The position numbers and the translations under genes are program-made. The notes beneath the pieces are model-generated. The model saw only the letters and a list, made by a program, of their open reading frames with translations. It did no database searches and was not told the origin of the DNA. A stretch of DNA of 64,000 nucleotides from an uncultured Gammaproteobacteria bacterium. Lineage in GTDB: Bacteria > Patescibacteriota > Patescibacteriia > 2-12-FULL-60-25. Numbering within the stretch: position 1 is the stretch's first letter; every line of letters starts with the position of its first letter. Location: NCBI GenBank assembly GCA_964604275.1, contig CAZRYH010000002.1, positions 2,413-66,412 of the forward strand, in the 5' to 3' direction. Below, piece after piece: positions 1,338 to 34,808 of this stretch.

Positions 1338-1901
1338 TTAGGATAGACCGACCATCATCGCGGCTCCGCGCAAATAATCGTTGGCTTTTTTGTAGCCGCT
1401 TTCGACATCCGCATTTTCAGAAAAACGCAGGATGTCAGAATGTTTGCCGATTTTATTTTTAAGATTCACGGTCTGATCCAAGTCGCGTTTGCCGGTTTGC
1501 ATGAGTTCCGTGCATTTTTGCCCCAGTTCGCACGCTTCCTGCGTGGCTTGGTCCAAAATATTTTTTACGGTTTGGGTGGGGATGGCTTGCATCCAGGTTT
1601 TGGCGTAACCCGGAACTCGATCGCTGATTTTTCCGACGGCCGCCAATTTGCAGGTCGGGTCATCGCTGCCTAAATAATCGAGTATTTCGGCGTAAGCGTC
1701 GAACCAGTTTTCCGTCTCGTCCGGCACCGCCACCTCTGGCAATTCAGTCTGTGTCATCCGCACCTCGGGTTTTGTGTCCTCGGTTTTGAGCGGCACGACG
1801 AAGCCTTGGTTTTGTTCCGTGACCTTTTCGGTCTTCGGGGTTTGGTTGCGGCGAACGGTTTCCGATGTGGAAGGACGTTCGAATGATTTGAAGAAATTCA
1901 T
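1338..1901 (-). CDS. hypothetical protein
   Basis: 187-aa ORF, same strand and close spacing with its neighbours. No motif recognised. Confidence 0.45.
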   Translation of the reverse strand: MNFFKSFERPSTSETVRRNQTPKTEKVTEQNQGFVVPLKTEDTKPEVRMTQTELPEVAVPDETENWFDAYAEILDYLGSDDPTCKLAAVGKISDRVPGYAKTWMQAIPTQTVKNILDQATQEACELGQKCTELMQTGKRDLDQTVNLKNKIGKHSDILRFSENADVESGYKKANDYLRGAAMMVGLS

Positions 1902-1911
1902 ATGGGATTGA

Positions 1912-2970
1912 TTACCATCCGCTGACTATTCGCGTCTCGAGAAGATCTTCGTCGCGTAGGTTTTTGATCAGGCTTTCGGCTTCTGCGTGTCCCAAGCGGA
2001 CCACGTTGGAACCCACGTGTATGACTACTGTTTCAATATTATCTTCGATGTGTTTGTTGATTTGTCCGATAAATCCGTTGCGCAGTTCTTCAGGAGTGAG
2101 ATTGGATGCAGATTCAATGTTCTCATCCTGCCAGGGGGTGTCGTCGGATGGATTTTCCTCAAATTCCTTTTTGTAAGCCTCCAAATCTCCGTGGCCGGCC
2201 AAAATACACAAGCCGCCTGTTCCCGAATCCGAAAGTTTGTCGTCGATGGAATAGTTGCGGTAACGCTCCTTGATTTTCCCGGCGGACATGACCCACAGGT
2301 TGGGATAGTTGCCGTATGAGACTATCAGCTCTTGTTCGTCGATGAATGAATCCAGTTCTTTGAGTCGGGCTTGTGCGTAATGCTGCAGCCGGGCATCCGT
2401 CTCGAGAGCGTCCGAGACCATGACCACGTCCTCGTGAGGAACGTCATTCCCGGCCAACAGCTCGGCATAATGCGAACGGATGGAAGCGGCGGCTTTTTCC
2501 GCCGTGGTTTTGACCGCATGCGAATCAGAGGTGTACAGATACACTTCGCGTTGGCCGTCTTTGGAAGTCAGATCAACCAGCAAATCCTGTATGTGCGATC
2601 TGGTGAATTCGGCTATATGCGCGTGGTTGGATACGTATTTATGGTCCGTAGCAGTGGCGTTTTCCAGATGCGCCAAATAATTCGTGATGCCATCCTGGAT
2701 GCGCAACTCTTCCGGGGTCTGCAAATCGCGATCCTCCACGCGTTGGGCCCATGCGCGCCAATTCTGCCACTGCGCGGTTTGTTCCTGGTTCATTCCGCCC
2801 TCGGATTCAAAACGCGTTGATGTGTTTTCAGGTTTATTTTCATGGACCGCTTGGTCCTTGGATTGGTCGGCGACGATCGTCGCGCAGTCGAATTTGTTGG
2901 TCATATTCGTCTTCGGCACACCATGACAAGCTCGATGTGCTGAAGACGAAGGACGGCTAGATTCAGCCAT
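1912..2970 (-). CDS. hypothetical protein
   Basis: 352-aa ORF (alternative ATG at 2904). Acidic, no motif recognised. Confidence 0.5.
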   Translation of the reverse strand: MAESSRPSSSAHRACHGVPKTNMTNKFDCATIVADQSKDQAVHENKPENTSTRFESEGGMNQEQTAQWQNWRAWAQRVEDRDLQTPEELRIQDGITNYLAHLENATATDHKYVSNHAHIAEFTRSHIQDLLVDLTSKDGQREVYLYTSDSHAVKTTAEKAAASIRSHYAELLAGNDVPHEDVVMVSDALETDARLQHYAQARLKELDSFIDEQELIVSYGNYPNLWVMSAGKIKERYRNYSIDDKLSDSGTGGLCILAGHGDLEAYKKEFEENPSDDTPWQDENIESASNLTPEELRNGFIGQINKHIEDNIETVVIHVGSNVVRLGHAEAESLIKNLRDEDLLETRIVSGW

Positions 2971-3096
2971 CCGAGGTCAGGGCTCTGCTTCCCTAGACTC
3001 ACCACTTCGCAGGTGACTCGCCCGTGCTTTTACGGCCATGGATTTTGGCCAACCGCGTTTAACGCGGGGTTTTGGGTTGGAAAGCGAGAGTGCGAT

Positions 3097-3300
3097 CTAG
3101 CGACGGCGCTGGCCTCCGGTGGGAGTCAGCACGGCCAGTGGATTCCTTCCGCAGCAGACCTTGCGGGCCTCGCGACCCAGGTTGTGCATCCGGTTCCTAT
3201 CCAGGCCTAGGATTCCGAGCGCTTCGATATAGCGTTCGTCTTCCCTTTGCCGCCCGTTCCATACCGCCAACACCACCAACTGCGCATCAGACTTGCTCAT
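3097..3300 (-). CDS. small hypothetical protein
   Basis: ATG at 3300 (MSKSDAQ) is preceded by AAGGGAGGACGG, a Shine-Dalgarno-like sequence. 67 aa, no motif. Confidence 0.3.
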   Translation of the reverse strand: MSKSDAQLVVLAVWNGRQREDERYIEALGILGLDRNRMHNLGREARKVCCGRNPLAVLTPTGGQRRR

Positions 3301-3864
3301 CCGTCCTCCCTTGCGGCTCACCATCTCTCCTCGATGACGAGCCATACGGGAGACCCGAACTTTTGGTTCGGCTCCTCCTGTCCTCCCCCATGTAGGCTTT
3401 TGGCCTGATGGGAACGAATGTCGCAGTCCGTGTCAGAATGCGGCGTTCGTTTTGCCAATGACGATGCTTATCTTCATTGTCCGACGCGACGTGTTCGCTT
3501 TTCTGGGGGCGGAAACCGCCCGCTTTTTGGCCCGAATGAACGGGACGAAAGGCTACAGACGTTGGCATCAGAAGTCCGCCTGAGGCGAACCGCTAAATTG
3601 AATTGATTTGAATGAACTGCGTCTCATCCGGACAAGCACGTCGGACGATTCGCGCCTTTTTTGGCATTCGGCTTTTCAACCGAATGATGGACGATAACAC
3701 AACTTTAAGATTCTGTCAAGAGTGGCTGGACAGTTTTAGGGCCCGTTTTTCTAAGGGCTTAATTTAGCCAAAAACCCGCTTTTTACCTGTCAAAACCCAC
3801 TTTCCATGCAAAAGTACGTTGTACGCGGTACGTGGTACGAACCCACTGTCCGTCAACCGCACCG

Positions 3865-3893
3865 TTGACAAAACCCCAAAAAAGTGTTATAGT
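3865..3893 (+). promoter_or_regulatory. sigma70-like promoter (TTGACA-17-TATAGT)
   Basis: TTGACA at 3865..3870, 17-nt spacer, TATAGT at 3888..3893. It lies about 105 nt upstream of the ATG at 4000. Confidence 0.45.
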
Positions 3894-3999
3894 CGAACGT
3901 ATTTTGCTCGAAGTGTCGGGCAGATACCGTGCGTTCCGGCGAGGCATGTTGCCAAACCCAAGGATGCACGTCCGCCGCAAAAGGAAAGGAAAAATCAAA

Positions 4000-5043
4000 A
4001 TGGCGGAAGCACTGTTCAGGAAGGAAAAGATCGATCGTACGTTCGACAGTCAGTTCAAACGAAAAGGAAGTTTGATTTCAGATGTGGGCACTGGTATCGG
4101 TGCCGTGGCCATGGGCGCAGCTGCCCATTGTTCGATGCTCGTGTTGTCGCGTTACGGCTTCGTCGCCATCAGCGACCTGACGGCGGTGATCGGAGAAGCG
4201 GTATCGGTACTCCTGGCATTGGGTGGTTTCGGAATCATCTGCGCAAGCGAAGCACGACCTCCACGCCAGTCCGGTGATTTTCACTGCGGCTCCGGCGGGG
4301 GTGGCTCGTGCGGCGGCTCAGGAAAGTCGACTTGCCACAAGGAACGTAGGCGCCCTGAATGGATCGGGGTCAATTGCTTCCTGGCGAGCGGTATCGTTTC
4401 CATGTTCGGCGCTTTCGCGATGATGTGCAGCGCGTCGTCTACGTGGATGGCCATGGGTATCGTGTTGTATACGTGCAGTGCCATCCTCTTCGGACTCGCT
4501 GGGTTCTTCGGCCTCTGGGGCATGTTCGAACCCGTCATCTCATGCGACAAGCGCAGCGGCGGACCAGACAGCGGCTCGTCATGCAGCGGCAGCGACAAGC
4601 GCGGCGCAAAATACTGCTCCGCGACCTCGGACGTGGTCGAGTGTGTGTCTATCGATAGCCGCACCGACAACGTCTACACCTGCAGCCGCAACAGGCTCGC
4701 GCCCGCCAGCGGCGGATGCGCGTGCAAGAAGCCCTGCGAGGTCTGCAGGTGCGAGCTCGAGCGCAACTCTTCGCATTCTGACAGCGGGACCGCCAAGGCG
4801 GATTCCGCTCTCGGAAGCGACACCGAAGGCACCGGCGCTACGGATCGCATCATGCAGTCCGTGGACGGCCTTGTGGCCAAGCTCGCGCAGCTCATGTTCC
4901 CGACGGAGAACACCCGCGAATTCGCATTCGCTTCCGACGGCGGCCCCTACGGACGTGGCGGACCGTTCGGCGGCAAGTTGAACTGCGACGGCGGACCGTT
5001 CGGACGCGGTGGCCCCTTTGGCCGCGGCGGACCGTTCGGCTGA
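4000..5043 (+). CDS. Cys-rich multi-pass membrane protein with C-terminal GGPFGR repeats
   Basis: ATG at 4000 follows AAGGAAAGGA. About four hydrophobic helices, Gly/Ser/Cys-rich loops, and a C-terminus of GGPYGRGGPFGG..GGPFGRGGPFGRGGPFG. Confidence 0.6.
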   Translation: MAEALFRKEKIDRTFDSQFKRKGSLISDVGTGIGAVAMGAAAHCSMLVLSRYGFVAISDLTAVIGEAVSVLLALGGFGIICASEARPPRQSGDFHCGSGGGGSCGGSGKSTCHKERRRPEWIGVNCFLASGIVSMFGAFAMMCSASSTWMAMGIVLYTCSAILFGLAGFFGLWGMFEPVISCDKRSGGPDSGSSCSGSDKRGAKYCSATSDVVECVSIDSRTDNVYTCSRNRLAPASGGCACKKPCEVCRCELERNSSHSDSGTAKADSALGSDTEGTGATDRIMQSVDGLVAKLAQLMFPTENTREFAFASDGGPYGRGGPFGGKLNCDGGPFGRGGPFGRGGPFG

Positions 5044-22437: not shown

Positions 22438-23010
22438 TTACTCTTTTACCGCAAAAACCGCGAAAGCACTCACTCCCGTGGCGCTGACTCCGAGCAGGAA
22501 CATCATCCAAAGCAGACGATCAAAGCCGAATTGAGCGGCCACTAAGCCACCCAAAGCCGCGGCTGCGGCCATTATCATGACGTTTGAGAACTGGCGCATT
22601 TTGCGGACCGTGCGGCGATGTTTTTCTTCTGTGATGTGCCGCATGATGTGGCTCCAAGAGGACTTGCCCATGCCTAAACCCACGCCCAGACAAATCTGCG
22701 CCGCATAAATCAAAGTCATGTCTTTGGCGTAGATGTAAAACAGCGGTACGAGCGCGGTGAAAATTGAGCCGGCGACAAGGCCTCCGCGGGCGCGGTCCGT
22801 GGGTTTGCCGTGTTGCAGGTAGGCGGCGAAAATCCAATCGAACATGGCGTATGAAAACAACCATAAAGCCGCGGATGCGGATATGGCTTGGATGCTCGCA
22901 TCTGGCAGGCGCTCGGTAAGGAATAACGCGAAGAGCGGCAACAACAATCCATAGGATCCGACCAGCAACAGATCCGCGGCGAACAGGTTTTTAAGCACGT
23001 TTATTTTCAT
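22438..23010 (-). CDS. 6-TM MFS-like half-transporter (C-terminal-half equivalent)
   Basis: 190 aa, six hydrophobic helices. Paralogous to the adjacent ORF. Confidence 0.55.
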   Translation of the reverse strand: MKINVLKNLFAADLLLVGSYGLLLPLFALFLTERLPDASIQAISASAALWLFSYAMFDWIFAAYLQHGKPTDRARGGLVAGSIFTALVPLFYIYAKDMTLIYAAQICLGVGLGMGKSSWSHIMRHITEEKHRRTVRKMRQFSNVMIMAAAAALGGLVAAQFGFDRLLWMMFLLGVSATGVSAFAVFAVKE

Positions 23011-23017
23011 AAAAATC

Positions 23018-23596
23018 CTAAGCTCGGTTCAGGGCCAAGCGGTTATAGGCCACGACCACCAGAGAAGATGCCAAAAACAAGGTTGTGCCAAAGAAGGCCA
23101 GCAGCGCGGTCATGCCTTGATCTTGGGCTATCATGCCACCCAAAAGGGCCAAACCGGCGCCCAGCAAGGCCCCGAACGCGTCCAATCGGAACCATACCGG
23201 TCCGCTGGCCAAATGGCACGTCTTTTGCTCCATGCGGTCCCAAGCCGGTTCGGAAAAAGCCAATCCCACGCCGTACAGGGCTTGGATGACGTAGATATCG
23301 ATCATGTCACGCGCCATCATGTACAGGAAGGGCGTGGCGATGGCGAACGCGCTGCCGAACCACAGCATTTTTTCCGCGCGATGGCCGCGGAAATCGTTTT
23401 TGCATGACAGTTCGGCAAAGGGACGGATCAGGCCAAGCGACAGCAGGAAAATGGCTTCGGCTAAACCCACGGAAACCAACGTGGATCCGGGTATCTGCTC
23501 CTTAAGGAACAGCGAAAAAATCGGGCCCAACAAACCGAAGGCCATCAGGTAGACCATATTGCCCATGGCGAGCAAACGCATCCATCGGGGAAACAT
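23018..23596 (-). CDS. 6-TM MFS-like half-transporter (N-terminal-half equivalent)
   Basis: 192 aa, six hydrophobic helices. Ends in TAG 7 nt before the next ATG. Confidence 0.55.
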   Translation of the reverse strand: MFPRWMRLLAMGNMVYLMAFGLLGPIFSLFLKEQIPGSTLVSVGLAEAIFLLSLGLIRPFAELSCKNDFRGHRAEKMLWFGSAFAIATPFLYMMARDMIDIYVIQALYGVGLAFSEPAWDRMEQKTCHLASGPVWFRLDAFGALLGAGLALLGGMIAQDQGMTALLAFFGTTLFLASSLVVVAYNRLALNRA

Positions 23597-23705
23597 GCAG
23601 GCATTATATCACAAACGTGTTTGTGGGTGTGGCCACGATTGACAAAACCGAAAATGGATGATAACCAATTACCGCACCGTCACACCAAAAACGAAAGGAT
23701 ATCTG

Positions 23706-24395
23706 ATGAGTTTTTCCATGGAACAAGGCCATGAGGTCAGCCAGACCGTCACGCATAAAAAGACCATGAGTCAGAGGCAGGATGTGGCCATCCAACAGAC
23801 CATGCTGCAACGCCAACGCGAGTTGGTCGAGGCCGTATGCGGCATTCGGTACCAACCGCATGGCGATTGCGGCCAGTGCGGGCATCGTTTGACCGACCTC
23901 GAAATCCTCAAGGGCTTTCGTGACGATCCTAGGGATTACACCACGGAATGCCCCCTGTGCCACTGGCGTTTCGAGCCGCGGCTCCATGCCTCGACCCAGT
24001 TCACGAGTCTGCAAATCATGTACCTCTGTCCGACCCAGACGTTGGACAAGCTTGCATCCCTGCAGAATACGCCTTTGGATGAAATCAAGTCCCTGCACGC
24101 GACCGCATACCACTCGGCGCTCACGCACTTCGGTGGTCTGAAGCAGGCTTTCGCGCAACTGGGCATGGAATACGCCTTTGAGGCCGATCTGGACTGGCGC
24201 AAAAAAGTGGTTCCATTCCTGGGTAAGCTGCCGGACACGGTCATCGCCAAGTTACTTGGGGCTAGCGTGTGGCAGGTGAGGCGTTTGCGCGCCGCCAAGA
24301 GCATCGCGCCGTTCAGGGTTCGCGACTTGCCCGGCCAAGAGCCCGGCATTCTCGAACATCACGTTGACGAAGAGAGGAAGGGCGGCGAAGGCTGA
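23706..24395 (+). CDS. hypothetical Zn-ribbon protein with HTH-like tail, paralog 1
   Basis: ATG at 23706 after AAAGGA. Motifs QRELVEAVCG, CGQCGH..CPLCHW, HFGGLKQAFAQLG, LPDTVIAKLLG..RRLR. Confidence 0.55.
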   Translation: MSFSMEQGHEVSQTVTHKKTMSQRQDVAIQQTMLQRQRELVEAVCGIRYQPHGDCGQCGHRLTDLEILKGFRDDPRDYTTECPLCHWRFEPRLHASTQFTSLQIMYLCPTQTLDKLASLQNTPLDEIKSLHATAYHSALTHFGGLKQAFAQLGMEYAFEADLDWRKKVVPFLGKLPDTVIAKLLGASVWQVRRLRAAKSIAPFRVRDLPGQEPGILEHHVDEERKGGEG

Positions 24396-24423
24396 GCTCG
24401 GCCGACCGGAAAGGTGGTGCTCG

Positions 24424-25071
24424 ATGGTTTATCCGCGCGATCCGTTGAAGGGCGTGGGCATGGGCTGCTGCTCCAAACGAAATCCTGAATTCAAGAAAAT
24501 CGTTTGGCGTAGGCAGCGCGAGTTGGTGGAGGCTATCACTGGCAAGAAGTTCACGATTTCTTGCGTCTGCCGCAACACCACTTGCGCCCATAGTTACACG
24601 GAATGGGAAATCGTGAATTGGTTCGACGTGGACGGCTTCACGGTCGAATGTCCCAAGTGCGGTTGGCATTCCGAGCCGCGGCTGACAGTGGATTTCGGTG
24701 ACGGCGGCAACCGCAAGCGCATCGAGTGCCAGTTATACGGTCCTGGTTTGGTTCTGGAGCGCTTGCCGGTGGTGCTCAAATCGCCGCCTTGGGATTTCGC
24801 TGAATATTCGGCTATCTGCAACTCGGCGGTCGTACACTTCGGTGGCCTGAAGCAGGCCTGCGCGCAGTTGGGCATCGAACGTTCTTTCGGTCCGGGTCCT
24901 GACTGGCGCGATCGGATCGATCCGTTCCTGGGCAGACTGCCAGACACGGTCATGGCCCGGTTGCTCGACACTAGTCCACGGTTCATGAGACGGTGGCGCC
25001 GCAATCAGCGCATCGCGCCTTTCGATCCTGGTCGGGTTCTTTTGTCCGGAAAAGAGGTCCGGACAGTTTGA
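24424..25071 (+). CDS. hypothetical Zn-ribbon protein with HTH-like tail, paralog 2
   Basis: ATG at 24424 after GAAAGGTGG. Motifs QRELVEAITG, CPKCGW, HFGGLKQACAQLG, LPDTVMARLL. Confidence 0.55.
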   Translation: MVYPRDPLKGVGMGCCSKRNPEFKKIVWRRQRELVEAITGKKFTISCVCRNTTCAHSYTEWEIVNWFDVDGFTVECPKCGWHSEPRLTVDFGDGGNRKRIECQLYGPGLVLERLPVVLKSPPWDFAEYSAICNSAVVHFGGLKQACAQLGIERSFGPGPDWRDRIDPFLGRLPDTVMARLLDTSPRFMRRWRRNQRIAPFDPGRVLLSGKEVRTV

Positions 25072-25104: not shown

Positions 25105-25128
25105 ACAAAAAATCCCTTTGCAGGGATT
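25105..25128 (-). terminator. terminator ending the minus-strand radical-SAM operon
   Basis: AATCCCT-gcaa-AGGGATT followed by T6, read on the minus strand. Confidence 0.6.
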
Positions 25129-25137
25129 GTTTTCGCA

Positions 25138-26115
25138 TCACATCAAATCCTTATAGCACATCGGATCCGCACCGGTCAGTTCTCCGGTCAGCCTGTACGC
25201 TCGGTTGCGGCAACCGCCGCAGTGGGCCAGGCGTTCGCAGTTGCGGCAGGGTTCGTCAAAGTCTTGCCGCTGTCTGATTTTATTGAACAGTTCGCTGTCT
25301 GACCAAATTTTTTCCAAAGGTGTTTCAAAAATATTGCCAGCGCTGACTCGGAAGAACGGACAGGGATAACATTCGCCAGATGGACCTATGACGCACGCGC
25401 CCACGCCAGCCGTGCAACCACCGTGGATGCCATCGAAGTCGCCTTTTTTGGATTCGTCCAACAAAGATACGAGCGGACTGGTGTAGCGGAGTATGTCGCC
25501 TTTCAGGAACAGCTCGTTGAGATGCTTTTCCGTGTCCATGAATTCCTCGCGCGTCATCAGGAAAGAAGGGTCGAGACGTTCGACCGGAATGCAGATGTTG
25601 AATCCGATCGGCACGTTGGCGCTTTTTGCGGCTTCAACCATCTGGTCGATCAAGTGACGGTTTTTGCGGTGGATAGTGGAAAAGACGTAGTTGTTGATGC
25701 CCGCGCGCCGCATGTCCTCCGCCAATTTGAGGTTGGCCGAACCGTGCAAACGCACGTCCTCGACCGGATCGAAACTCAGATGCACCAAATCGAAAATACG
25801 CAGTTTGTCCCACAGCCTCTCTTTGAGAAGCGTGCCGTTGCTCTGCAAAACCAGCCTGAATTTATGCGGCGTGTTGGTTATGAAATCGACCAATTTGTCG
25901 AATTCGCTGTGCAGGATGGCCTCGCCTCCTGAAATGGTGAATGTCCAAACGTCGTTGCGGTCCGCGAATCGATAAAGATCTTTAATTGTTTCGAGCGGCA
26001 AATCCACGGGTTTGAAATTCCGGTTGTAGCAATGTTTGCAGTTGAGATTGCATTTGGTGGTTATCTCAACTTCCAATATATGCATGCCCAAATTGGCATC
26101 TGATGTCTGGTCCAT
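25138..26115 (-). CDS. radical SAM/SPASM-domain protein (maturase 3 of the precursor operon)
   Basis: CNLNCKHC (CxxxCxxC) near the N-terminus. C-terminal Cys clusters GGCTAGVGAC..CYPC..CRNCERLAHCGGC. Confidence 0.8.
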   Translation of the reverse strand: MDQTSDANLGMHILEVEITTKCNLNCKHCYNRNFKPVDLPLETIKDLYRFADRNDVWTFTISGGEAILHSEFDKLVDFITNTPHKFRLVLQSNGTLLKERLWDKLRIFDLVHLSFDPVEDVRLHGSANLKLAEDMRRAGINNYVFSTIHRKNRHLIDQMVEAAKSANVPIGFNICIPVERLDPSFLMTREEFMDTEKHLNELFLKGDILRYTSPLVSLLDESKKGDFDGIHGGCTAGVGACVIGPSGECYPCPFFRVSAGNIFETPLEKIWSDSELFNKIRQRQDFDEPCRNCERLAHCGGCRNRAYRLTGELTGADPMCYKDLM

Positions 26116-27145
26116 AGTTGGTATTTGAATCCGTTAAACGCCACGCTAAGCAACCTCCGCGGCACTTGCCCCACTTCATGCAACCCGAACATGCTCCGGG
26201 CTTGGGCTTTTCCAGAATCTGCTTGCGGAAAAATTCGAAACCTTTGCCGTGGTTCCAAATTTCCGAGGGGTCTTCATCGAAGATATTGCCGCAAAGGTAT
26301 TCCTCGCTCTGGAAATAGCGGCAAGGGAACACGTCGCCTCGATAATCCACCACCAGCTTGTATTTTCCTCCGGCGCAATGGGGTAGGGGGACAGCGCTTT
26401 GGAAAACTTCGGGTTGATCGCAGAATACGTTCTGCATTCCGTGTCGCAATTTTCGTCGATTGTCCGGTATGGTCCGGAGGAATTCCAGATATTTGGGTAC
26501 TGCGGTTTCGTACATTGATTGCCTTTGAGTTAGGGTGCCGCGATCTATCGCCAAGTTGAAGGCGTGGTAGGCTAAATCCAAATTCGCGAACCGGGCATAA
26601 ATTGCTGGCATTTTCTCGATGCGATCCGCATCCACAACCGTGTTGATGGCCACATTCAAGCCGCGGTCCAGGGCCATGGCCAGAGACGCGGTGACGCGCG
26701 CGAACGAGCCTGGGACGCCGGTCAGGGCATCGTGGTCTTGGTCCAGAGCATGGATGGAAAACACTAACTCGTCGATATCTCCAAGTTCAAATTTGGACAA
26801 ATCCATGATGCCGTTGGTGTTGACCGTAATCCGCGTCATGCCGATTTTTTTCGCGAAAGAGAACAGGCGCGGGACGTCGCGATACATGAAGATTTCTCCG
26901 CCGCTGAAATTGAGCTGCCGCACACCGATGGCGTGGAGCTTGGTCAACGCGTTTTCCCAGTCGGCCAAGGGCTTGTCCTCAAAACGACGATCCGGCGCGC
27001 AGGCCCTAAAGCAAAACACGCACCGCTGGTTGCAGTTCCGCGTCACTTCAAGCTGGGCCATGGCCGGCTTTTGGATGGCCAGGCCGAACAGCTCGGGGTA
27101 TGAGAAACCGGCCAAATCAGCCGTTGATGAGGATGCGCCTGTCAT
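26066..27145 (-). CDS. radical SAM/SPASM-domain protein (maturase 2)
   Basis: CNQRCVFC cluster. C-terminal CAGGKYK..FPCRYF..CSGCMKWGKCRGGC. Overlaps the downstream gene by 50 nt. Confidence 0.8.
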   Translation of the reverse strand: MTGASSSTADLAGFSYPELFGLAIQKPAMAQLEVTRNCNQRCVFCFRACAPDRRFEDKPLADWENALTKLHAIGVRQLNFSGGEIFMYRDVPRLFSFAKKIGMTRITVNTNGIMDLSKFELGDIDELVFSIHALDQDHDALTGVPGSFARVTASLAMALDRGLNVAINTVVDADRIEKMPAIYARFANLDLAYHAFNLAIDRGTLTQRQSMYETAVPKYLEFLRTIPDNRRKLRHGMQNVFCDQPEVFQSAVPLPHCAGGKYKLVVDYRGDVFPCRYFQSEEYLCGNIFDEDPSEIWNHGKGFEFFRKQILEKPKPGACSGCMKWGKCRGGCLAWRLTDSNTNYGPDIRCQFGHAYIGS

Positions 27146-27362
27146 GTAGGTGTTCGATAAATGCGGCCGGGATGCGGCCGCATTGGTTGGTTGTACCGTT
27201 CTTCAAAATCACCGAAATCCATTCGGCGGTCTGGTCTTCGAAAAAATAAAAGTCAAAGTCCAGGCACACCGCCACGCGCCCCCCTTTTTCCATCCAAGCG
27301 ACCCGCGGATTGACGCGTTGGCCGTCTTGGATGGAATTCATGTCCGACGGGGGATTAGGCAT
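27117..27362 (-). CDS. PqqD-like peptide-binding (RRE) protein candidate
   Basis: 81 aa from ATG 27362 (track ORF starts at TTG 27386). Size and position between a small ORF and a rSAM gene fit. GGRVAVCLDFDFYFFEDQTAEWISVILKNG loosely resembles PqqD. Confidence 0.45.
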   Translation of the reverse strand: MPNPPSDMNSIQDGQRVNPRVAWMEKGGRVAVCLDFDFYFFEDQTAEWISVILKNGTTNQCGRIPAAFIEHLHDRRILING

Positions 27363-27364
27363 GG

Positions 27365-27505
27365 TTAGTCGCCGTTTATCAGACAACCGTTGTTCTTGAA
27401 ATCTTTGACGCTCATTTTCCAGGTCGTCGAGCTCTTGGGGGCTTGTACGGTCTTGGCCTTGTCAGCTGTTTTCTTAGCTTTCTTGGCTGGCGCGAGGTTC
27501 TTCAT
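27365..27505 (-). CDS. candidate RiPP precursor peptide (46 aa, below the ORF-track cutoff)
   Basis: Hand translation gives MKNLAPAKKAKKTADKAKTVQAPKSSTTWKMSVKDFKNNGCLINGD. The stop codon lies 2 nt before the PqqD-like ATG. Has its own promoter. No clear Shine-Dalgarno sequence. Confidence 0.45.
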   Translation of the reverse strand: MKNLAPAKKAKKTADKAKTVQAPKSSTTWKMSVKDFKNNGCLINGD

Positions 27506-27541: not shown

Positions 27542-27570
27542 AACATAGACCCGTGGGCTTGGGATGTCAA
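27542..27570 (-). promoter_or_regulatory. near-consensus sigma70 promoter (TTGACA-17-TATGTT) for the small ORF operon
   Basis: On the minus strand, TTGACA at 27570..27565, 17-nt spacer, TATGTT at 27547..27542. Confidence 0.5.
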
Positions 27571-27579
27571 TTCCCTGGG

Positions 27580-27608
27580 AAAAATAAAAAACCCGACTTG
27601 TCGCCGGG
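27580..27608 (-). terminator. rho-independent terminator after the methyltransferase gene
   Basis: Minus strand reads CCCGGC-gacaa-GTCGGG, then TTTTTTATTTT. Confidence 0.6.
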
Positions 27609-27622
27609 TTGGGTTTGAGGGA

Positions 27623-28375
27623 TTAGGCAGCTCGGGCCGTGAAATAGAGACGACTCGGATGCTCGAGACCGTCTTCATAGACCTTGGTCTCAAGCTTTGT
27701 CTCCAAATTCATGAAGCCCGCCGTTTCCAACATCGGAAGGATGTCGGTTTCGTCGTAGCCGCGCTCGGTGTGGAGCTCGTGGTCGTGGGCGAAGGCGCCA
27801 TCCGGACGCCGCAGAAACATGTCCACGTCCATGGTCCAGACGCGATCCTGCCCTCCAAAGCGGAACGTCACGAAGGAAGCTTCATCCTCGAAAATCCTGG
27901 GCTTGTTCTTCTGCGAAGCCGCGATGTGGTCGCGGGTATTCATGTCGAAGAGGAAGATGCCACCCGGCTTCATGTTCCGCCTCACGCTCCTGAACGCGGA
28001 CAGCATGTCCTCATCGGTCAGGAGATAGTTGAGTGAATCGTAGAAGCAGACGGCCAAATCCACGGCGCCGTATTCCGAGAGGTCAAAGTCGCGCATGTCG
28101 GCCAAGACGTAGACTCCAGAAGGTGATTTGCCTCGCGCCTTCTCGAGCATTGGCCCTGAGAGGTCGATGCCCAAGGGCGAAAAACCCATGCCCTCAAGCA
28201 TGCGCGAGATGGTCCCGGTGCCGCAGGCCACATCTAGAGCGCGACCGCGGGGTACGGCGTAGCGCTCAACGGTTTCCGCGATCAGGGATTCCCAGGCCGC
28301 GTATTTTTTGCCGCTCATGAGGCGGTCGTATTGGGCGGCGAAATTGTCGCCGTATTGCGTTTGATCGTGGTTCAT
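27623..28375 (-). CDS. class I SAM-dependent methyltransferase
   Basis: Motif I ALDVACGTGTISRML. ATG at 28375 overlaps the upstream TGA (ATGA). Confidence 0.8.
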   Translation of the reverse strand: MNHDQTQYGDNFAAQYDRLMSGKKYAAWESLIAETVERYAVPRGRALDVACGTGTISRMLEGMGFSPLGIDLSGPMLEKARGKSPSGVYVLADMRDFDLSEYGAVDLAVCFYDSLNYLLTDEDMLSAFRSVRRNMKPGGIFLFDMNTRDHIAASQKNKPRIFEDEASFVTFRFGGQDRVWTMDVDMFLRRPDGAFAHDHELHTERGYDETDILPMLETAGFMNLETKLETKVYEDGLEHPSRLYFTARAA

Positions 28376-29628
28376 AGCCTTATTCCTTGTTCGTAAGCGC
28401 ATGAGAAGCGGCAGAAACCGCCACAAGCCGCGCATGATTCCGTGGAATTGTGCGTGCAAGTCGCGCAGGTCTTGTGCCGCGAGAGGAAGCGTTTGGTTTC
28501 TGCTTCAAGCGCCGCGACCAAGCCCGGCCCGTCATACGTCTCGATGTCATCCAGGGCGCGCGTGCGGTCCATGACGCATGGATAGAGCTTGCCGATGGCG
28601 CTCACGGAGATGCGCTTTCTGATGCCGCATCCGTAGTACGCGGCCTTGGGTATGGATTTCTTGCTCGCCAACATACCGTTACGCACGTTACCGTTGCCCA
28701 AATGTGTGGCTATGGCCGACAGTTCGGCTTTGGCCAAGGCGTTGTGAACCGCATTGCCGGTCCGTATCGCTGGACGCAGGTGCACAGTTGTCTGATGGTC
28801 GTGCGCCACTCGGATGAGCCCGTCGATTTGATCCAGATTGTTGGCGTGGATCGTGGCGATGAAGTAGGGCTTGATGCCCACCTCGTGTATCCGTTTCAAT
28901 CCGGTCATCAGATTATCATACAGCCCGGAAAGCCGTCGAATGCTGTCATGGACCGGACCCACGCCATCCAAGCTGATGGCTACGCCCAATCCGCGGCCGA
29001 GAGACTCCAGCAGTGCGCTTGATGCGCCCGCCAGTCCGCCACCGTTGGTCACCACGTAGTAATGCCTTCCCAAGCCGTGGATGTGGTCCAGGATGAGCGG
29101 CAGGTCTTGGCGTAAGGTCGGTTCTCCGCCCGTGACCTCAAACAGGCACGTACCCAGATGCGCCAACCAATCGATGCGGCGCAAGACGTCATGGAGCGTG
29201 GGCTGAGGGCCATGCAAATCGTCGATGTGATAACACGCCTCGCAGGCGCAATCACACGCGCTCGTCACGTCCAACAGAGTTTGGGGCGGCAATCCGACGC
29301 AGTCCACCTTGCAATCCAAGCGTTGGGATGAGGTGGAGCGCGATTCCAGCAGGACCGCGTTCTCCGTCAGCAGGGCGACCGTATCGCGGTCCAGTTGCGA
29401 TTCACGGATTGGTTCTTGACCTTGCAACGCATCGGCCAAGTCTTGATCCGCGTGGATGAATGCGGCGTAGAGGTGGGGCGGGGTGATGACCGCGCCACCG
29501 GGTTCGCGGCGGATGATGGCTAGGGGATTGCGATGCAGAATGCGCGAGCCTGTCGCGGGCGTCCTGTCGGTTTCGCGGATTTTGACCACGCAAGGCGCCC
29601 CCAGATGGTGCAGCGATGTAGCGAACAT
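28372..29628 (-). CDS. radical SAM/SPASM-domain protein with an N-terminal extension of about 110 aa (maturase 1)
   Basis: CDCACEAC cluster at about residue 125. C-terminal YYGCG..YPCVMD..CATC..CAACGGFC. AAGGAG precedes the ATG at 29628. Confidence 0.8.
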   Translation of the reverse strand: MFATSLHHLGAPCVVKIRETDRTPATGSRILHRNPLAIIRREPGGAVITPPHLYAAFIHADQDLADALQGQEPIRESQLDRDTVALLTENAVLLESRSTSSQRLDCKVDCVGLPPQTLLDVTSACDCACEACYHIDDLHGPQPTLHDVLRRIDWLAHLGTCLFEVTGGEPTLRQDLPLILDHIHGLGRHYYVVTNGGGLAGASSALLESLGRGLGVAISLDGVGPVHDSIRRLSGLYDNLMTGLKRIHEVGIKPYFIATIHANNLDQIDGLIRVAHDHQTTVHLRPAIRTGNAVHNALAKAELSAIATHLGNGNVRNGMLASKKSIPKAAYYGCGIRKRISVSAIGKLYPCVMDRTRALDDIETYDGPGLVAALEAETKRFLSRHKTCATCTHNSTESCAACGGFCRFSCAYEQGIRL

Positions 29629-29637
29629 GTCGGCTCC

Positions 29638-30648
29638 TTATTTCGTGGTTTCAGTGAATAGTCGTCCGTATTCCAGCAGCGCGTCCTCGGCAGGCACATC
29701 CAGACGCGTCAGGGCATCCAAGCCGGCCGTGCGATCGATGATTCCGAACCGAACACGTTCGGCTAAGTACTCGAGGACCACCGGACATTTTTCGATCACT
29801 TCTTCCAATGGCAGGCGTTTGCGACCTTGCGTCAGGTCCGCGAAATATGCGCCCGGCATCAGGCAGTCCGTGTCGTAGCCACCACACAACGGATCGGCCC
29901 ACGGGAGGTTGAGCTCCGAGACCAGATTGCGGTTACGCGTTTTGCTCAGCCCGAAGGCGAAGCCGCCGCGTACGATGGTGATACCCGACGGTTTTTTCCA
30001 ATGGATGGAAAAGTTGCCGTCCTGTTTCTGTTTGGGCGTGTCGCCCCCTGTCATGAGCGTTTCGTATCCCGTCGCCCGCATGGTCTCCAAATATGCACGG
30101 TCGATCATGCGATTGCAGAGCTTGCCGCAGGGCAGGGTCCGCGTCGCGTGGCAATGGCGATACACGTCGAACGTGTCCAAGGTCTTTCCCGTGATGGCGA
30201 TGACCGCGGGGTCGTCTTGTATGGCGTGGGTGATGTCCACGGTGAGATGGGCTTCCCCCAGCCCGAGGTTACTGATGACGTCGCGCACGTTCTTGTCCGC
30301 AACGTTGCCTTTGACTCCCGTGGCCACCGTAAAAACGTCGAGCTTTATTCCGCGCTTGCGGCATTCGTCGCGCATGAGCGCGAGCACGATGGTGCTGTCC
30401 AATCCGCCCGAATAGGCGAAGAGCACGCTGCGAGTCGAACCAAGGAACTCCTGGAATTCGCGGTCGCAGGTTTCTCGGATGTTGGCCAAACCCAGGTCGT
30501 GGACCGCGGCGCAGCATTCGCATAGCGGTTGACCAGCGCGCATTTCGAAGTCGAGGGGTTTCCCCGTGGCCGGATTGTTCACCCGCAGACCCATGGGAAA
30601 TACGCACGAGGAACAGAAAACGAAATCCTGATCTTTTGAATCGCACAT
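29638..30648 (-). CDS. PP-loop ATP pyrophosphatase with N-terminal 4-Cys ribbon (amidotransferase-like)
   Basis: CSSC..CECC ribbon followed by AYSGGLDST (SGGxDS PP-loop). This order recalls WbpG/PseA-type N-acetyl-sugar amidotransferases. Confidence 0.65.
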   Translation of the reverse strand: MCDSKDQDFVFCSSCVFPMGLRVNNPATGKPLDFEMRAGQPLCECCAAVHDLGLANIRETCDREFQEFLGSTRSVLFAYSGGLDSTIVLALMRDECRKRGIKLDVFTVATGVKGNVADKNVRDVISNLGLGEAHLTVDITHAIQDDPAVIAITGKTLDTFDVYRHCHATRTLPCGKLCNRMIDRAYLETMRATGYETLMTGGDTPKQKQDGNFSIHWKKPSGITIVRGGFAFGLSKTRNRNLVSELNLPWADPLCGGYDTDCLMPGAYFADLTQGRKRLPLEEVIEKCPVVLEYLAERVRFGIIDRTAGLDALTRLDVPAEDALLEYGRLFTETTK

Positions 30649-31642: not shown

Positions 31643-32539
31643 TCATCCGCAGGCGAGCTTGGCCAAGCGTATCGCGCCTTCGCGGCTTTTGGCCGTGACG
31701 ATGAAGCGTTTGACGTGGCAGAAGATGGCGTCTGATACAGAGGTAGCCGCGATCAATGATGCTTGTGTTTTTCCGGCCCATGCCTCCGGCAAAGGATGCA
31801 ACGGGTCTGGCGAACCGGGCGCGATGGGAACCGCGCGCACGCTCCAATAGTTGCCGTCGTCGTAGATGACGTACCGCACTTCCGGGAATTCGTCTGCGAC
31901 CGCATTCTGCCAAGGCAGTTTGCGGCCCAGGACCATGATGCGCGGATCTTCGCGTACGGCGGCGGCTTCTCGAATCAAACCGCGCGCGGCTACGACGGTT
32001 TTGGCTTGGGCGATGTTGCGATCAAGAATCAGCTCGGCCACGCGCACCATTTGATGGAAGGCATGGTCCTCGGTCAAGCCCTGTTCCAACCATGTTGGGT
32101 TGAAAGTCTCGAGCATGCACGCCACGGTATAGGGAATGGGATCGCGGACATGTTTCCAGGGCGTTTCGCCGTTGTCCGCCGCGTCGCCGTGCTGGATGAG
32201 CGTGTCGTCTACCAAATTGGCCACATCAGCGCCACCGCAAATCCTAGATCCGTATTCCAGCCACAGCAGTCCCGCGGCCGCGTATTTAACTCCGTTGGCA
32301 CGGCGGGGGACGTCCGGTTGATGGTGGTCGAAATCTCCGGTCGCCGGGTTGTGCTTTCCGCCCACGTCGGCCCTAAAGTCCGCGTCCGCGAGCGTTTGCG
32401 GTTCGCGCGTGCGCACGATTTTGACGTTGAACAGCTTGTTGAGAATGGCCACGGACAAAGCGTCGTCCCAGTGGGCCGTGCCGTCATGCACCGCAACGAT
32501 CTTTGAAGTTGTTTGGCGGATTGATTGCTCGCGTGTCAC
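31643..32539 (-). CDS. MYG1/UPF0160-family metal-dependent hydrolase
   Basis: VHDGTAHWDDALSVAIL, VRTREP, DVGG..DFDHHQ motifs. Confidence 0.7.
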   Translation of the reverse strand: MTREQSIRQTTSKIVAVHDGTAHWDDALSVAILNKLFNVKIVRTREPQTLADADFRADVGGKHNPATGDFDHHQPDVPRRANGVKYAAAGLLWLEYGSRICGGADVANLVDDTLIQHGDAADNGETPWKHVRDPIPYTVACMLETFNPTWLEQGLTEDHAFHQMVRVAELILDRNIAQAKTVVAARGLIREAAAVREDPRIMVLGRKLPWQNAVADEFPEVRYVIYDDGNYWSVRAVPIAPGSPDPLHPLPEAWAGKTQASLIAATSVSDAIFCHVKRFIVTAKSREGAIRLAKLACG

Positions 32540-33473: not shown

Positions 33474-34808
33474 TCATTCCTCGGTTACGTATTCAACATC
33501 CGGGAGCTTGGGGCCTGGTATTTGCACTTGTTTCAAAAAATCCACGATGGTGGCATCGAGTTTGATTTGGGAGAAAGTCACGGGTTTGACCAGTTGTAGA
33601 CCTTCGAGCGAAGTGCAACGACTGAGGGCCACGTAAACCTGGCCAGCCGCGAATGCCCCGCTACCCAAATCCAACGCTACCTTTTCAAAGGTCTTGCCTT
33701 GGCTTTTGTGAATGGTCACAGCCCATGCCAGACGCAGCGGCAGTTGTTTGAAACTGCCGATTTGTTGGCGTTCCAAAGTGTCCGAGCTTTTTACGTATTT
33801 TGTCCGGAACATGTTCCACGTGTACGACTCGATGGTGATGGGTTCCTTTTTTCCGTCCAGCAACACGGTGGCCGAAGCGTGCGTCTCGTCCAAACCCGTG
33901 ACCCAACCCAAGCTGCCGTTAACGAATCTACCGGCTTGGTCGTTGGCCACGCACATCACGCGCGCCCCGATTTTCAAATCCAGATTTTCATCCGTGGGTA
34001 GATCGCGTTCCGAGAATTTGCCTTGCAGTGTGCCGTTGAAACTTCGCGTTTCGGCTTTGAGCTGGCGCATGCGCGATTGGTTGATGGCGTCGGCCGCGGC
34101 GTTGGTGGGCGTGAGCACTATCGAGTCGGGCGGCAATTCGCCTGTGGTGCGACGGGCGTTCAATGTGATGAGTTCGCTAGCCGAAACCGTGCGGTCGCGT
34201 ATGGCGTTGAGGATGCGGATGAAGTCTTTGTCTTTTTGGCGATAGATTTTTTCCAGTTCCGCAAAATCCACCATGCCTAATTCTGCCAGCATGCGGTAGA
34301 CTTTGGCCGAGAAGAAATAAGGTGAGGAATAGAACCTGGAAAAAGCTTGGTTTTCGTCTTGTCTGATGACAGGTGGAAGCTGGTAAAGATCTCCGATGCC
34401 GATAAGGCGCACCCCGCCGAACGGCAGATGGTTTTTGCGTACGGTTTTTAAGAACGCATCCATGCTGTCCAGCAGGTCGGCGCGTACCATGGATATTTCA
34501 TCGATGACCAGGGCGTTGATCTTTCGATATATGCCGGCGTTCTTGCGTTCCAAGGCTTCCTGTCTGGCGATGTCGGGCGTGACGGCTGGCGGGAGCTTGA
34601 AAAAGCGGTGGATGGTTTCCCCGTCCACGTTCAACGCGGCCACCCCGGTGGGCGCCAGCACAGGCACGTTGAACTTACTGTTTTGAACGAAATGCTTGAG
34701 CAATGTGCTTTTGCCCGTGCCCGCACGTCCGGTTACGAAAACGAAGGCTTTGCCATTCTCCATTTTGGCCAAAGCGTTTTCGAATTGCGGGGTAAAATCC
34801 AGTAGCAT
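33474..34808 (-). CDS. PIF1/RecD-like SF1 helicase
   Basis: GRAGTGKSTLLK (Walker A), LVIDEISMV, VTIHKSQGKTF, YVALSRCTS. Confidence 0.8.
   Translation of the reverse strand: MLLDFTPQFENALAKMENGKAFVFVTGRAGTGKSTLLKHFVQNSKFNVPVLAPTGVAALNVDGETIHRFFKLPPAVTPDIARQEALERKNAGIYRKINALVIDEISMVRADLLDSMDAFLKTVRKNHLPFGGVRLIGIGDLYQLPPVIRQDENQAFSRFYSSPYFFSAKVYRMLAELGMVDFAELEKIYRQKDKDFIRILNAIRDRTVSASELITLNARRTTGELPPDSIVLTPTNAAADAINQSRMRQLKAETRSFNGTLQGKFSERDLPTDENLDLKIGARVMCVANDQAGRFVNGSLGWVTGLDETHASATVLLDGKKEPITIESYTWNMFRTKYVKSSDTLERQQIGSFKQLPLRLAWAVTIHKSQGKTFEKVALDLGSGAFAAGQVYVALSRCTSLEGLQLVKPVTFSQIKLDATIVDFLKQVQIPGPKLPDVEYVTEE

Follow-up and report, generated by a model that had tools for sequence, protein, structure and literature searches.

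The question raised by this locus is whether a 46-codon open reading frame, lying just ahead of a small protein gene and two radical SAM (rSAM) genes, encodes the peptide on which these enzymes act. The frame lies in a stretch of 64,000 nucleotides, here called the window, and had been put forward as a precursor candidate in an initial annotation. Its extent is exactly as first read: positions 27365..27505 of the minus strand run from an ATG start to a TAA stop and translate to MKNLAPAKKAKKTADKAKTVQAPKSSTTWKMSVKDFKNNGCLINGD. The 2-nt gap that had been claimed is also there, with the TAA (27367-27365) followed by CC and then by the ATG (27362) of an 81-aa ORF. As had been cautioned, no Shine-Dalgarno sequence is found upstream of the peptide ORF. 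We do not see this as a problem, because such sites are rare in the window, occurring in only about 11 of its 47 long ORFs, and because relatives in the WQM subgroup have strong GGAGG sites ahead of the peptide gene. The surrounding 15 kb hold 180 ORFs of at least 30 aa, and a 46-codon ORF by itself is within chance. Whether it is a gene has thus to be judged by comparing loci.

Protein-level searching recovered an exact copy of the ORF, which is present on six other contigs. The closest relative is a 45-aa ORF, MKRAMPAKKAKKSEDKAKVNQSPKNDNWKMSVKDFKDNGCLINGD, which is 72% identical and lies in a fully syntenic contig of 93 kb (L002). When the DNA of the window and L002 is aligned, the sole indel within the ORF is 3 nt long and in frame, while the 5' UTR shows large indels, and the last 19 codons differ by four synonymous and two non-synonymous changes. 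Starting from the enzymes, the peptide ORF was present in ten of ten loci reached via the rSAM, namely L002 and nine more distant loci, with all nine of the latter carrying a small ORF at the equivalent position with the same terminal motif. Starting from the peptide, we scanned a metagenome collection with a hand-made degenerate DNA pattern, W-[K/Q]-M-x8-G-C-L-[IVM]-N-x-[D/N]-stop, and obtained 33 matches, all recognisable family members. An rSAM homologue lies 250-530 nt downstream in 30 of the 33, the remaining three contigs stop within 600 nt, and the second rSAM is present wherever the contig reaches that far. The pattern dictated some of the residues in these 33 loci; the ten loci derived from the enzyme fit it unfiltered.

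Across the 31 distinct core DNAs, pS is 0.91 and pN 0.25, with synonymous sites saturated and non-synonymous sites not. All six codons are in use for an invariant Leu and all four for an invariant Gly. Because synteny holds in both directions and pS contrasts so strongly with pN, sequence comparison indicates that the ORF is a real protein-coding gene under purifying selection, tightly coupled to rSAM enzymes. A search of homologous clusters for a conserved small ORF, with alignment of the C-termini, had been proposed as a check on the precursor candidate, and it finds the ORF in every related locus that was retrieved; the loss of the ORF from syntenic loci, which would have spoken against it, is not seen, and the ORF is kept throughout. 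Tandem second copies of the peptide gene, a typical RiPP trait, occur in L039 and in L020/L048/L049. The diverged copies lie at about 162-218 and 398-454 of L039 and at 330-387 and about 699-797 of L048. In a deposited NCBI genome, GCA_029210915.1 (L013), neither the peptide gene nor the gene of its small partner protein was called in the region 4585-5001, so the family is under-annotated.

A promoter of its own precedes the peptide gene, which is the first gene of a compact operon of four, the others being the 81-aa ORF and two overlapping radical SAM/SPASM genes. The promoter is of the sigma-70 type (TTGACA-17-TATGTT, 27542..27570, minus strand), with 10 of 12 positions matching, and both hexamers are identical between the window and L002 while the flanking DNA diverges. 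Just ahead of it, an intrinsic-terminator-like hairpin with a T-run (27590..27610, minus strand) ends an upstream tailoring operon, and a counterpart of this stem and T-run lies at the equivalent place in L002. Another terminator-like hairpin (25111..25128, minus strand) marks the 3' end of the four genes. The peptide, the partner protein and the two rSAM/SPASM genes are conserved as a unit, which bears out the proposed coupling of the precursor candidate to its neighbours. We also observed a near-perfect GC-rich palindrome, GCGGCCG-n5-CGGCCGC, at 27160-27184, within the partner gene at the codons of its conserved G-R-I-P-A-A motif; the stem is identical in L002 and was flagged on the plus strand in the terminator scan.

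Conservation within the peptide is confined to its C-terminal end. The last 19 residues, TWKMSVKDFKNNGCLINGD (27368..27424, minus strand), align across loci to the consensus x-W-[K/Q]-M-[D/S/N]-[V/I/A]-x-[E/D/S]-[F/L/V]-x-x-N-G-C-L-[I/V/M]-N-x-[D/N]-stop. The single Cys is invariant, as are the flanking Gly, Leu and Asn, and the stop codon stands at a fixed distance, always five residues past this Cys. Around the Cys, N-G-C (Asn at Cys-2, in 26 of 31 cores) and C-x-x-N (Asn at Cys+3) are conserved. The Met is not absolute, with the second copy in L048 reading WQI. Residues 1-27 (27425..27505, minus strand) are hypervariable, with no conserved length or sequence, being Lys-rich in some loci, Glu/Asn-rich in others and missing in L016, where the whole peptide, MDWQMDVEDLESNGCLVNSN, is leaderless and only 20 aa long. 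The conserved 19-mer is therefore the functional unit. The gene for this 20-aa peptide (L016, 3729-3791) is preceded by a TTGACA promoter and by GAGAGGA, a strong ribosome-binding site. The initial annotation had called the leader Lys/Ala-rich and atypical. The description is accurate for the window, and the worry is resolved in that the region is a dispensable, drifting extension. On these alignments, selection acts at the protein level on the final 19 residues and nowhere else in the peptide. Pfam and NCBIfam models gave no match to the peptide even at E ≤ 10.

The second gene of the operon (27117..27362, minus strand) encodes the 81-aa partner, and it is present in every locus. From the loci we collected 26 distinct sequences, with relatives of 62-89 aa, and the protein has 13 matches among 1.84 billion representative proteins. 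It gave no match to Pfam or to NCBIfam at E ≤ 10, including the Pfam model for PqqD, and a word-indexed search found a near-identical copy only. A profile of the family run against PDB sequences returned noise, and hhalign of the family against a three-sequence PqqD profile gave a probability of 0.1%. The single-sequence AlphaFold model was unusable (pLDDT 39.5). With an alignment of 14 sequences, AlphaFold2 gave a model with a pLDDT of 79, above 90 in the core, in which strands are followed by two helices. Searched against the PDB with Foldseek, this model placed TbiB1 with its leader peptide on top (TM 0.66, probability 1.00), and the list consists almost entirely of RiPP recognition elements (RREs): TbiB1, LynD, TruD, TfuB1, PbtF-RRE, McbB, ThcOx, MccB and SuiB. 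The E-values are weak (best 7e-3), with TM scores of 0.6-0.66. The clear reading of the predicted model is nevertheless an RRE fold, because nearly all matches are RREs and they align over their full length. The ORF had been described as PqqD-like, which is borne out structurally by the predicted fold and not by sequence.

The best structural matches of the model, at TM 0.60-0.66, are the lasso-peptide B1 proteins TbiB1 and TfuB1, which are free-standing too, are about 85 aa long and bind their precursor. Unlike them, the cluster protein has rSAM/SPASM partners, and the cluster lacks a lasso cyclase and a B2 protease; sequence identity is about 10%. A separate observation concerns P0039, a protein of 1670 aa, which matches partner residues 13-45 (the beta-strand part) in eight separate stretches (E 2e-9) and may consist of repeats of a beta unit resembling this one.

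The two remaining genes of the operon encode maturases with Pfam Radical_SAM and SPASM domains. Maturase 1 (359 aa, 26066..27145, minus strand) overlaps the RRE gene by 29 nt and keeps C38/C42/C45 and eight SPASM-region Cys in 25 homologues. Maturase 2 (325 aa, 25138..26115, minus strand) overlaps maturase 1 by 50 nt and keeps its CxxxCxxC and eight SPASM-region Cys across 23 homologues. The CxxxCxxC begins at residue 38 in one of these enzymes and at residue 22 in the other, and since neither has an N-terminal extension of its own, a stand-alone RRE is to be expected. Around maturase 1 there is a discrete family: 27 proteins are 38-98% identical to it, and the next matches drop to 27%. One member is annotated as a Patescibacteria group bacterium. 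The family is rare and patchy, amounting to about 27 enzyme clusters among 5.8 billion proteins, and a scan of genome contigs with the rSAM gave one unrelated match only (L001, 22% identity). The closest solved structures to both maturases are PqqE, SuiB and SkfB, all peptide-modifying enzymes. No rSAM of the cluster approaches an NCBIfam equivalog cut-off, with the best matches of both maturases (GeoRSP, PqqE, AhbD, MftC, WgkB and NirJ2) scoring 70-120 bits against cut-offs of 265-650. The reaction type can therefore not be transferred from these families.

Upstream of the peptide gene, most loci carry an accessory trio. In the window it comprises a PP-loop ATP pyrophosphatase of 336 aa (29638..30648, minus strand), with an SGGLDS motif, an N-terminal CxxC...CxxC ribbon and further conserved Cys; a third radical SAM of 418 aa (28372..29628, minus strand) with a conserved N-terminal domain of about 120 aa; and a class I SAM methyltransferase of about 250 aa (27623..28375, minus strand), which in most loci lies directly upstream of the peptide. 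In L013 (2585-4585) a single 666-aa protein combines the third rSAM with the methyltransferase, so the two act together. When aligned with hhalign, the N-terminal domain of the third rSAM matches the small RRE family (probability 42%, E 2.6e-4, 67 columns), which suggests that these 120 or so residues are probably a fused RRE.

The distribution of the PP-loop gene follows the last residue of the peptide. It is present in 13 distinct loci with an Asp-ending peptide and missing from all six evaluable Asn-ending loci (L016, L018, L030, L032, L034 and L038), a link that is confounded by shared ancestry; a neighbour-joining tree of the rSAM scatters the Asn-ending loci over at least four positions. 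One of these loci, L018, retains the third rSAM and the methyltransferase and lacks the PP-loop gene. Conversely, in L014 and L031 the PP-loop gene has been relocated and the other two accessory genes are gone, and these peptides end in Asp. An apparent exception is L020, with no PP-loop gene within 6 kb upstream. Because the gene accompanies Asp-ending peptides and is missing where Asn is already terminal, the simplest reading is that the PP-loop enzyme probably acts on the carboxylate of the last Asp by activating it, with amidation as the most likely outcome. A macrolactam that joins the terminal Asp to the Lys adjoining the Trp in some cores was also considered, and rejected because loci with Gln in place of this Lys keep both the Asp and the PP-loop gene.

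Several other genes lie close to the cluster. Just beyond it and on its strand are two adjacent paralogous membrane-protein genes (22438-23010 and 23018-23596) encoding about 190 aa each, one with a weak MFS_1 match. The pair is conserved in the closest relative only (L002, 13387-14573) and is possibly a split exporter. Between this MFS-like pair and the cluster are two overlapping paralogous genes on the plus strand (23658-24395 and 24364-25071), whose products (245 and 235 aa) contain motifs rich in Cys and match HTH_17 weakly at the C-terminus, with one homologue in L002. Domains unusual for bacteria are also found nearby, namely a PIF1 helicase (33474-34808) and MYG1/UPF0160 (31643-32539), and L002 encodes an 857-aa MVP_shoulder protein (1535-4108).

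With a co-conserved precursor, a predicted RRE fold and the full set of rSAM and SPASM Cys, the system belongs to a known general kind, RRE-dependent rSAM/SPASM peptide modification. As far as its sequences tell, it lacks what defines the NxxC, streptide, tryglysin, PQQ and mycofactocin families. We consider it likely that the ORF encodes the substrate peptide of an undescribed rSAM-modified RiPP-type system that occurs sporadically in Patescibacteria-type genomes.

Among the alternatives, the one that fares best is that the peptide is a scaffold for an intracellular cofactor or small molecule, like PqqA in PQQ or MftA in mycofactocin biosynthesis, and not a secreted bioactive product. As in those systems, a short peptide gene accompanies a stand-alone RRE-fold protein and an rSAM/SPASM enzyme without an RRE of its own, and the order of the genes is that of mftA-mftB-mftC. 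The conserved and presumably reacting part is the C-terminal end of the peptide, which, as in MftA, keeps a fixed position. Both rSAMs have PqqE as their nearest solved structure, and PqqE and MftC are among their top NCBIfam matches. A downstream search found no conserved protease or exporter/transporter with the cluster, a lack that is unusual for a secreted natural product. Additionally, the hosts have small genomes and the cluster sits amid housekeeping genes such as trmD and rpsP. The scores of the two rSAMs are, however, far under the cut-offs, at 75.8 and 82.8 bits for PqqE (cut-off 381) and 74.9 and 84.3 bits for MftC (cut-off 265), some 76-84 bits overall. The peptide has neither Glu-x3-Tyr nor Gly-Val-Tyr; its motif is W...GCLxNxD, with a core that has no Tyr and an end of N-x-[D/N]. 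The known systems have one rSAM/SPASM enzyme and the cluster two, its RRE has no sequence similarity to PqqD, and the other pqq and mft genes are absent from it. No candidate cofactor-using dehydrogenases are conserved nearby, the tandem peptide copies are divergent, and a needed cofactor would be less sparsely distributed than the maturase 1 family. We therefore regard a cofactor scaffold as unlikely, while giving it more weight than a Trp-Lys link, an NxxC-type peptide or a chance ORF.

The initial annotation had drawn attention to pairs of Trp and Lys in the peptide and to streptide-type enzymes, which link the two. The locus does resemble the streptococcal RaS-RiPPs (streptide and tryglysin/WGK) in that a small precursor with an invariant Trp adjoins an rSAM/SPASM gene, in that a Lys adjoins this Trp in the window peptide, and in that WgkB is among the better, though weak, NCBIfam matches of both rSAMs. 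The pairing is not conserved, however: 17 of 31 cores have Gln in place of the adjacent Lys, no Lys elsewhere is conserved, and the spacing is neither KxxxW nor WGK. Against WgkB (NF050035) the enzymes score 70.5 and 91 bits with a cut-off of 650, and against the streptide enzyme StrB/SuiB (TIGR04080) 45.8 and 40.1 bits with a cut-off of 500. The cluster further differs in its host group, in its two to three rSAMs and PP-loop enzyme, and in the absence of a shp/rgg quorum-sensing context. A link from the Trp to a Lys side chain is thus very improbable.

Sactipeptide and ranthipeptide systems (for instance CteB, PapB, NxxcB, SkfB and AlbA) offer a further parallel. They too place an rSAM/SPASM gene beside a Cys-containing precursor, SkfB and AlbA are among the matches of the cluster enzymes, and the invariant Cys of the peptide lies near Asn and Asp, which are known thioether acceptors (PMC9389541). 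In contrast to these systems, the cluster peptide has one Cys only, with no multi-Cys pattern of the SCIFF type, and the RRE is a protein of its own and not fused to the N-terminus of either core enzyme. CxxN and Cx4[D/N] are the candidate motifs, and not the described NxxC or Cx3D, and scores stay below every equivalog cut-off. A specific version of this idea had been raised for the window peptide, which reads N-N-G-C: that an rSAM bonds the Cys to the Asn at Cys-3 through the beta-carbon of the latter, as in NxxcA/NxxcB. Chemistry of the NxxcB type on Asn is established (PMC9389541), but the motif as a whole is not a feature of the family. The residue at Cys-3 is Lys in nine of the 31 cores, Ala in six, Asn in only five, Ser in three, Asp and Glu in two each, and Thr, Arg, Leu or Gln in one each; even the closest relative has Asp there, and Asn is found in only two of the ten loci reached without a motif filter. 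This makes an NxxC-type bond even less probable than a Trp-Lys link.

Finally, a chance ORF or a non-coding element of the rSAM operon, such as a 5' leader or small RNA, can be set aside as a negligible prospect: the frame is short, without a Shine-Dalgarno sequence, of low complexity at its N-terminus and uncalled in at least one NCBI genome (L013), but its frame, stop position and motif survive saturated synonymous divergence, relatives have strong ribosome-binding sites, and no Rfam match was found in the window.

Taking the ORF as the substrate of an rSAM-modified RiPP-type system, we can outline how the modification might proceed. The stand-alone RRE would bind the W-[K/Q]-M-x-V-x-x-F stretch of the core, as the N-terminus can be missing and the core rSAMs have no RRE of their own, and would offer the two rSAM/SPASM enzymes the N-G-C-L-Φ-N-x-[D/N] tail. 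One of these enzymes probably links the lone invariant Cys by a radical thioether to the invariant Asn at +3 or to the terminal Asp/Asn at +5. Such enzymes are established to use Asn and Asp as thioether acceptors, as in NxxcB and PapB (PMC9389541), and a thioether from this Cys, as residue conservation suggests, is our leading guess for the chemistry. The other enzyme would carry out a second radical modification, perhaps of the invariant Trp, or else an epimerisation. In loci that have the upstream module, its enzymes would tailor the same peptide, with the PP-loop enzyme probably adenylating and amidating the C-terminal Asp.

Our literature search found no paper with the core sequences or describing such a cluster in Patescibacteria/CPR, and the peptide quite probably founds an undescribed modified-peptide family in tiny, uncultured bacteria of the Patescibacteria type. 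The precursor is short and synthesisable, its leader is dispensable in at least one natural version, and the compactness of the cluster suits direct co-expression in E. coli. The covariation of the terminal Asp/Asn with the PP-loop gene provides a falsifiable hypothesis on one tailoring step, and profiles of the 19-mer and the RRE family would recover genes missed in annotation, such as those in L013. To our knowledge, hardly any natural product has been characterised from the Patescibacteria (CPR), whose genomes are minimal. A conserved radical-SAM peptide system of four to seven genes is thus a concrete entry to the chemistry of this group. More tentatively, and with the odds against it, the two to three rSAMs, the methyltransferase and the PP-loop enzyme may together build an undescribed crosslinked C-terminus on a leader- and protease-independent 19-mer, which would amount to a RiPP class, or a cofactor derived from a peptide, that is new and confined to ultra-small Patescibacteria. 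Such a product could have a place in their episymbiotic lifestyle.
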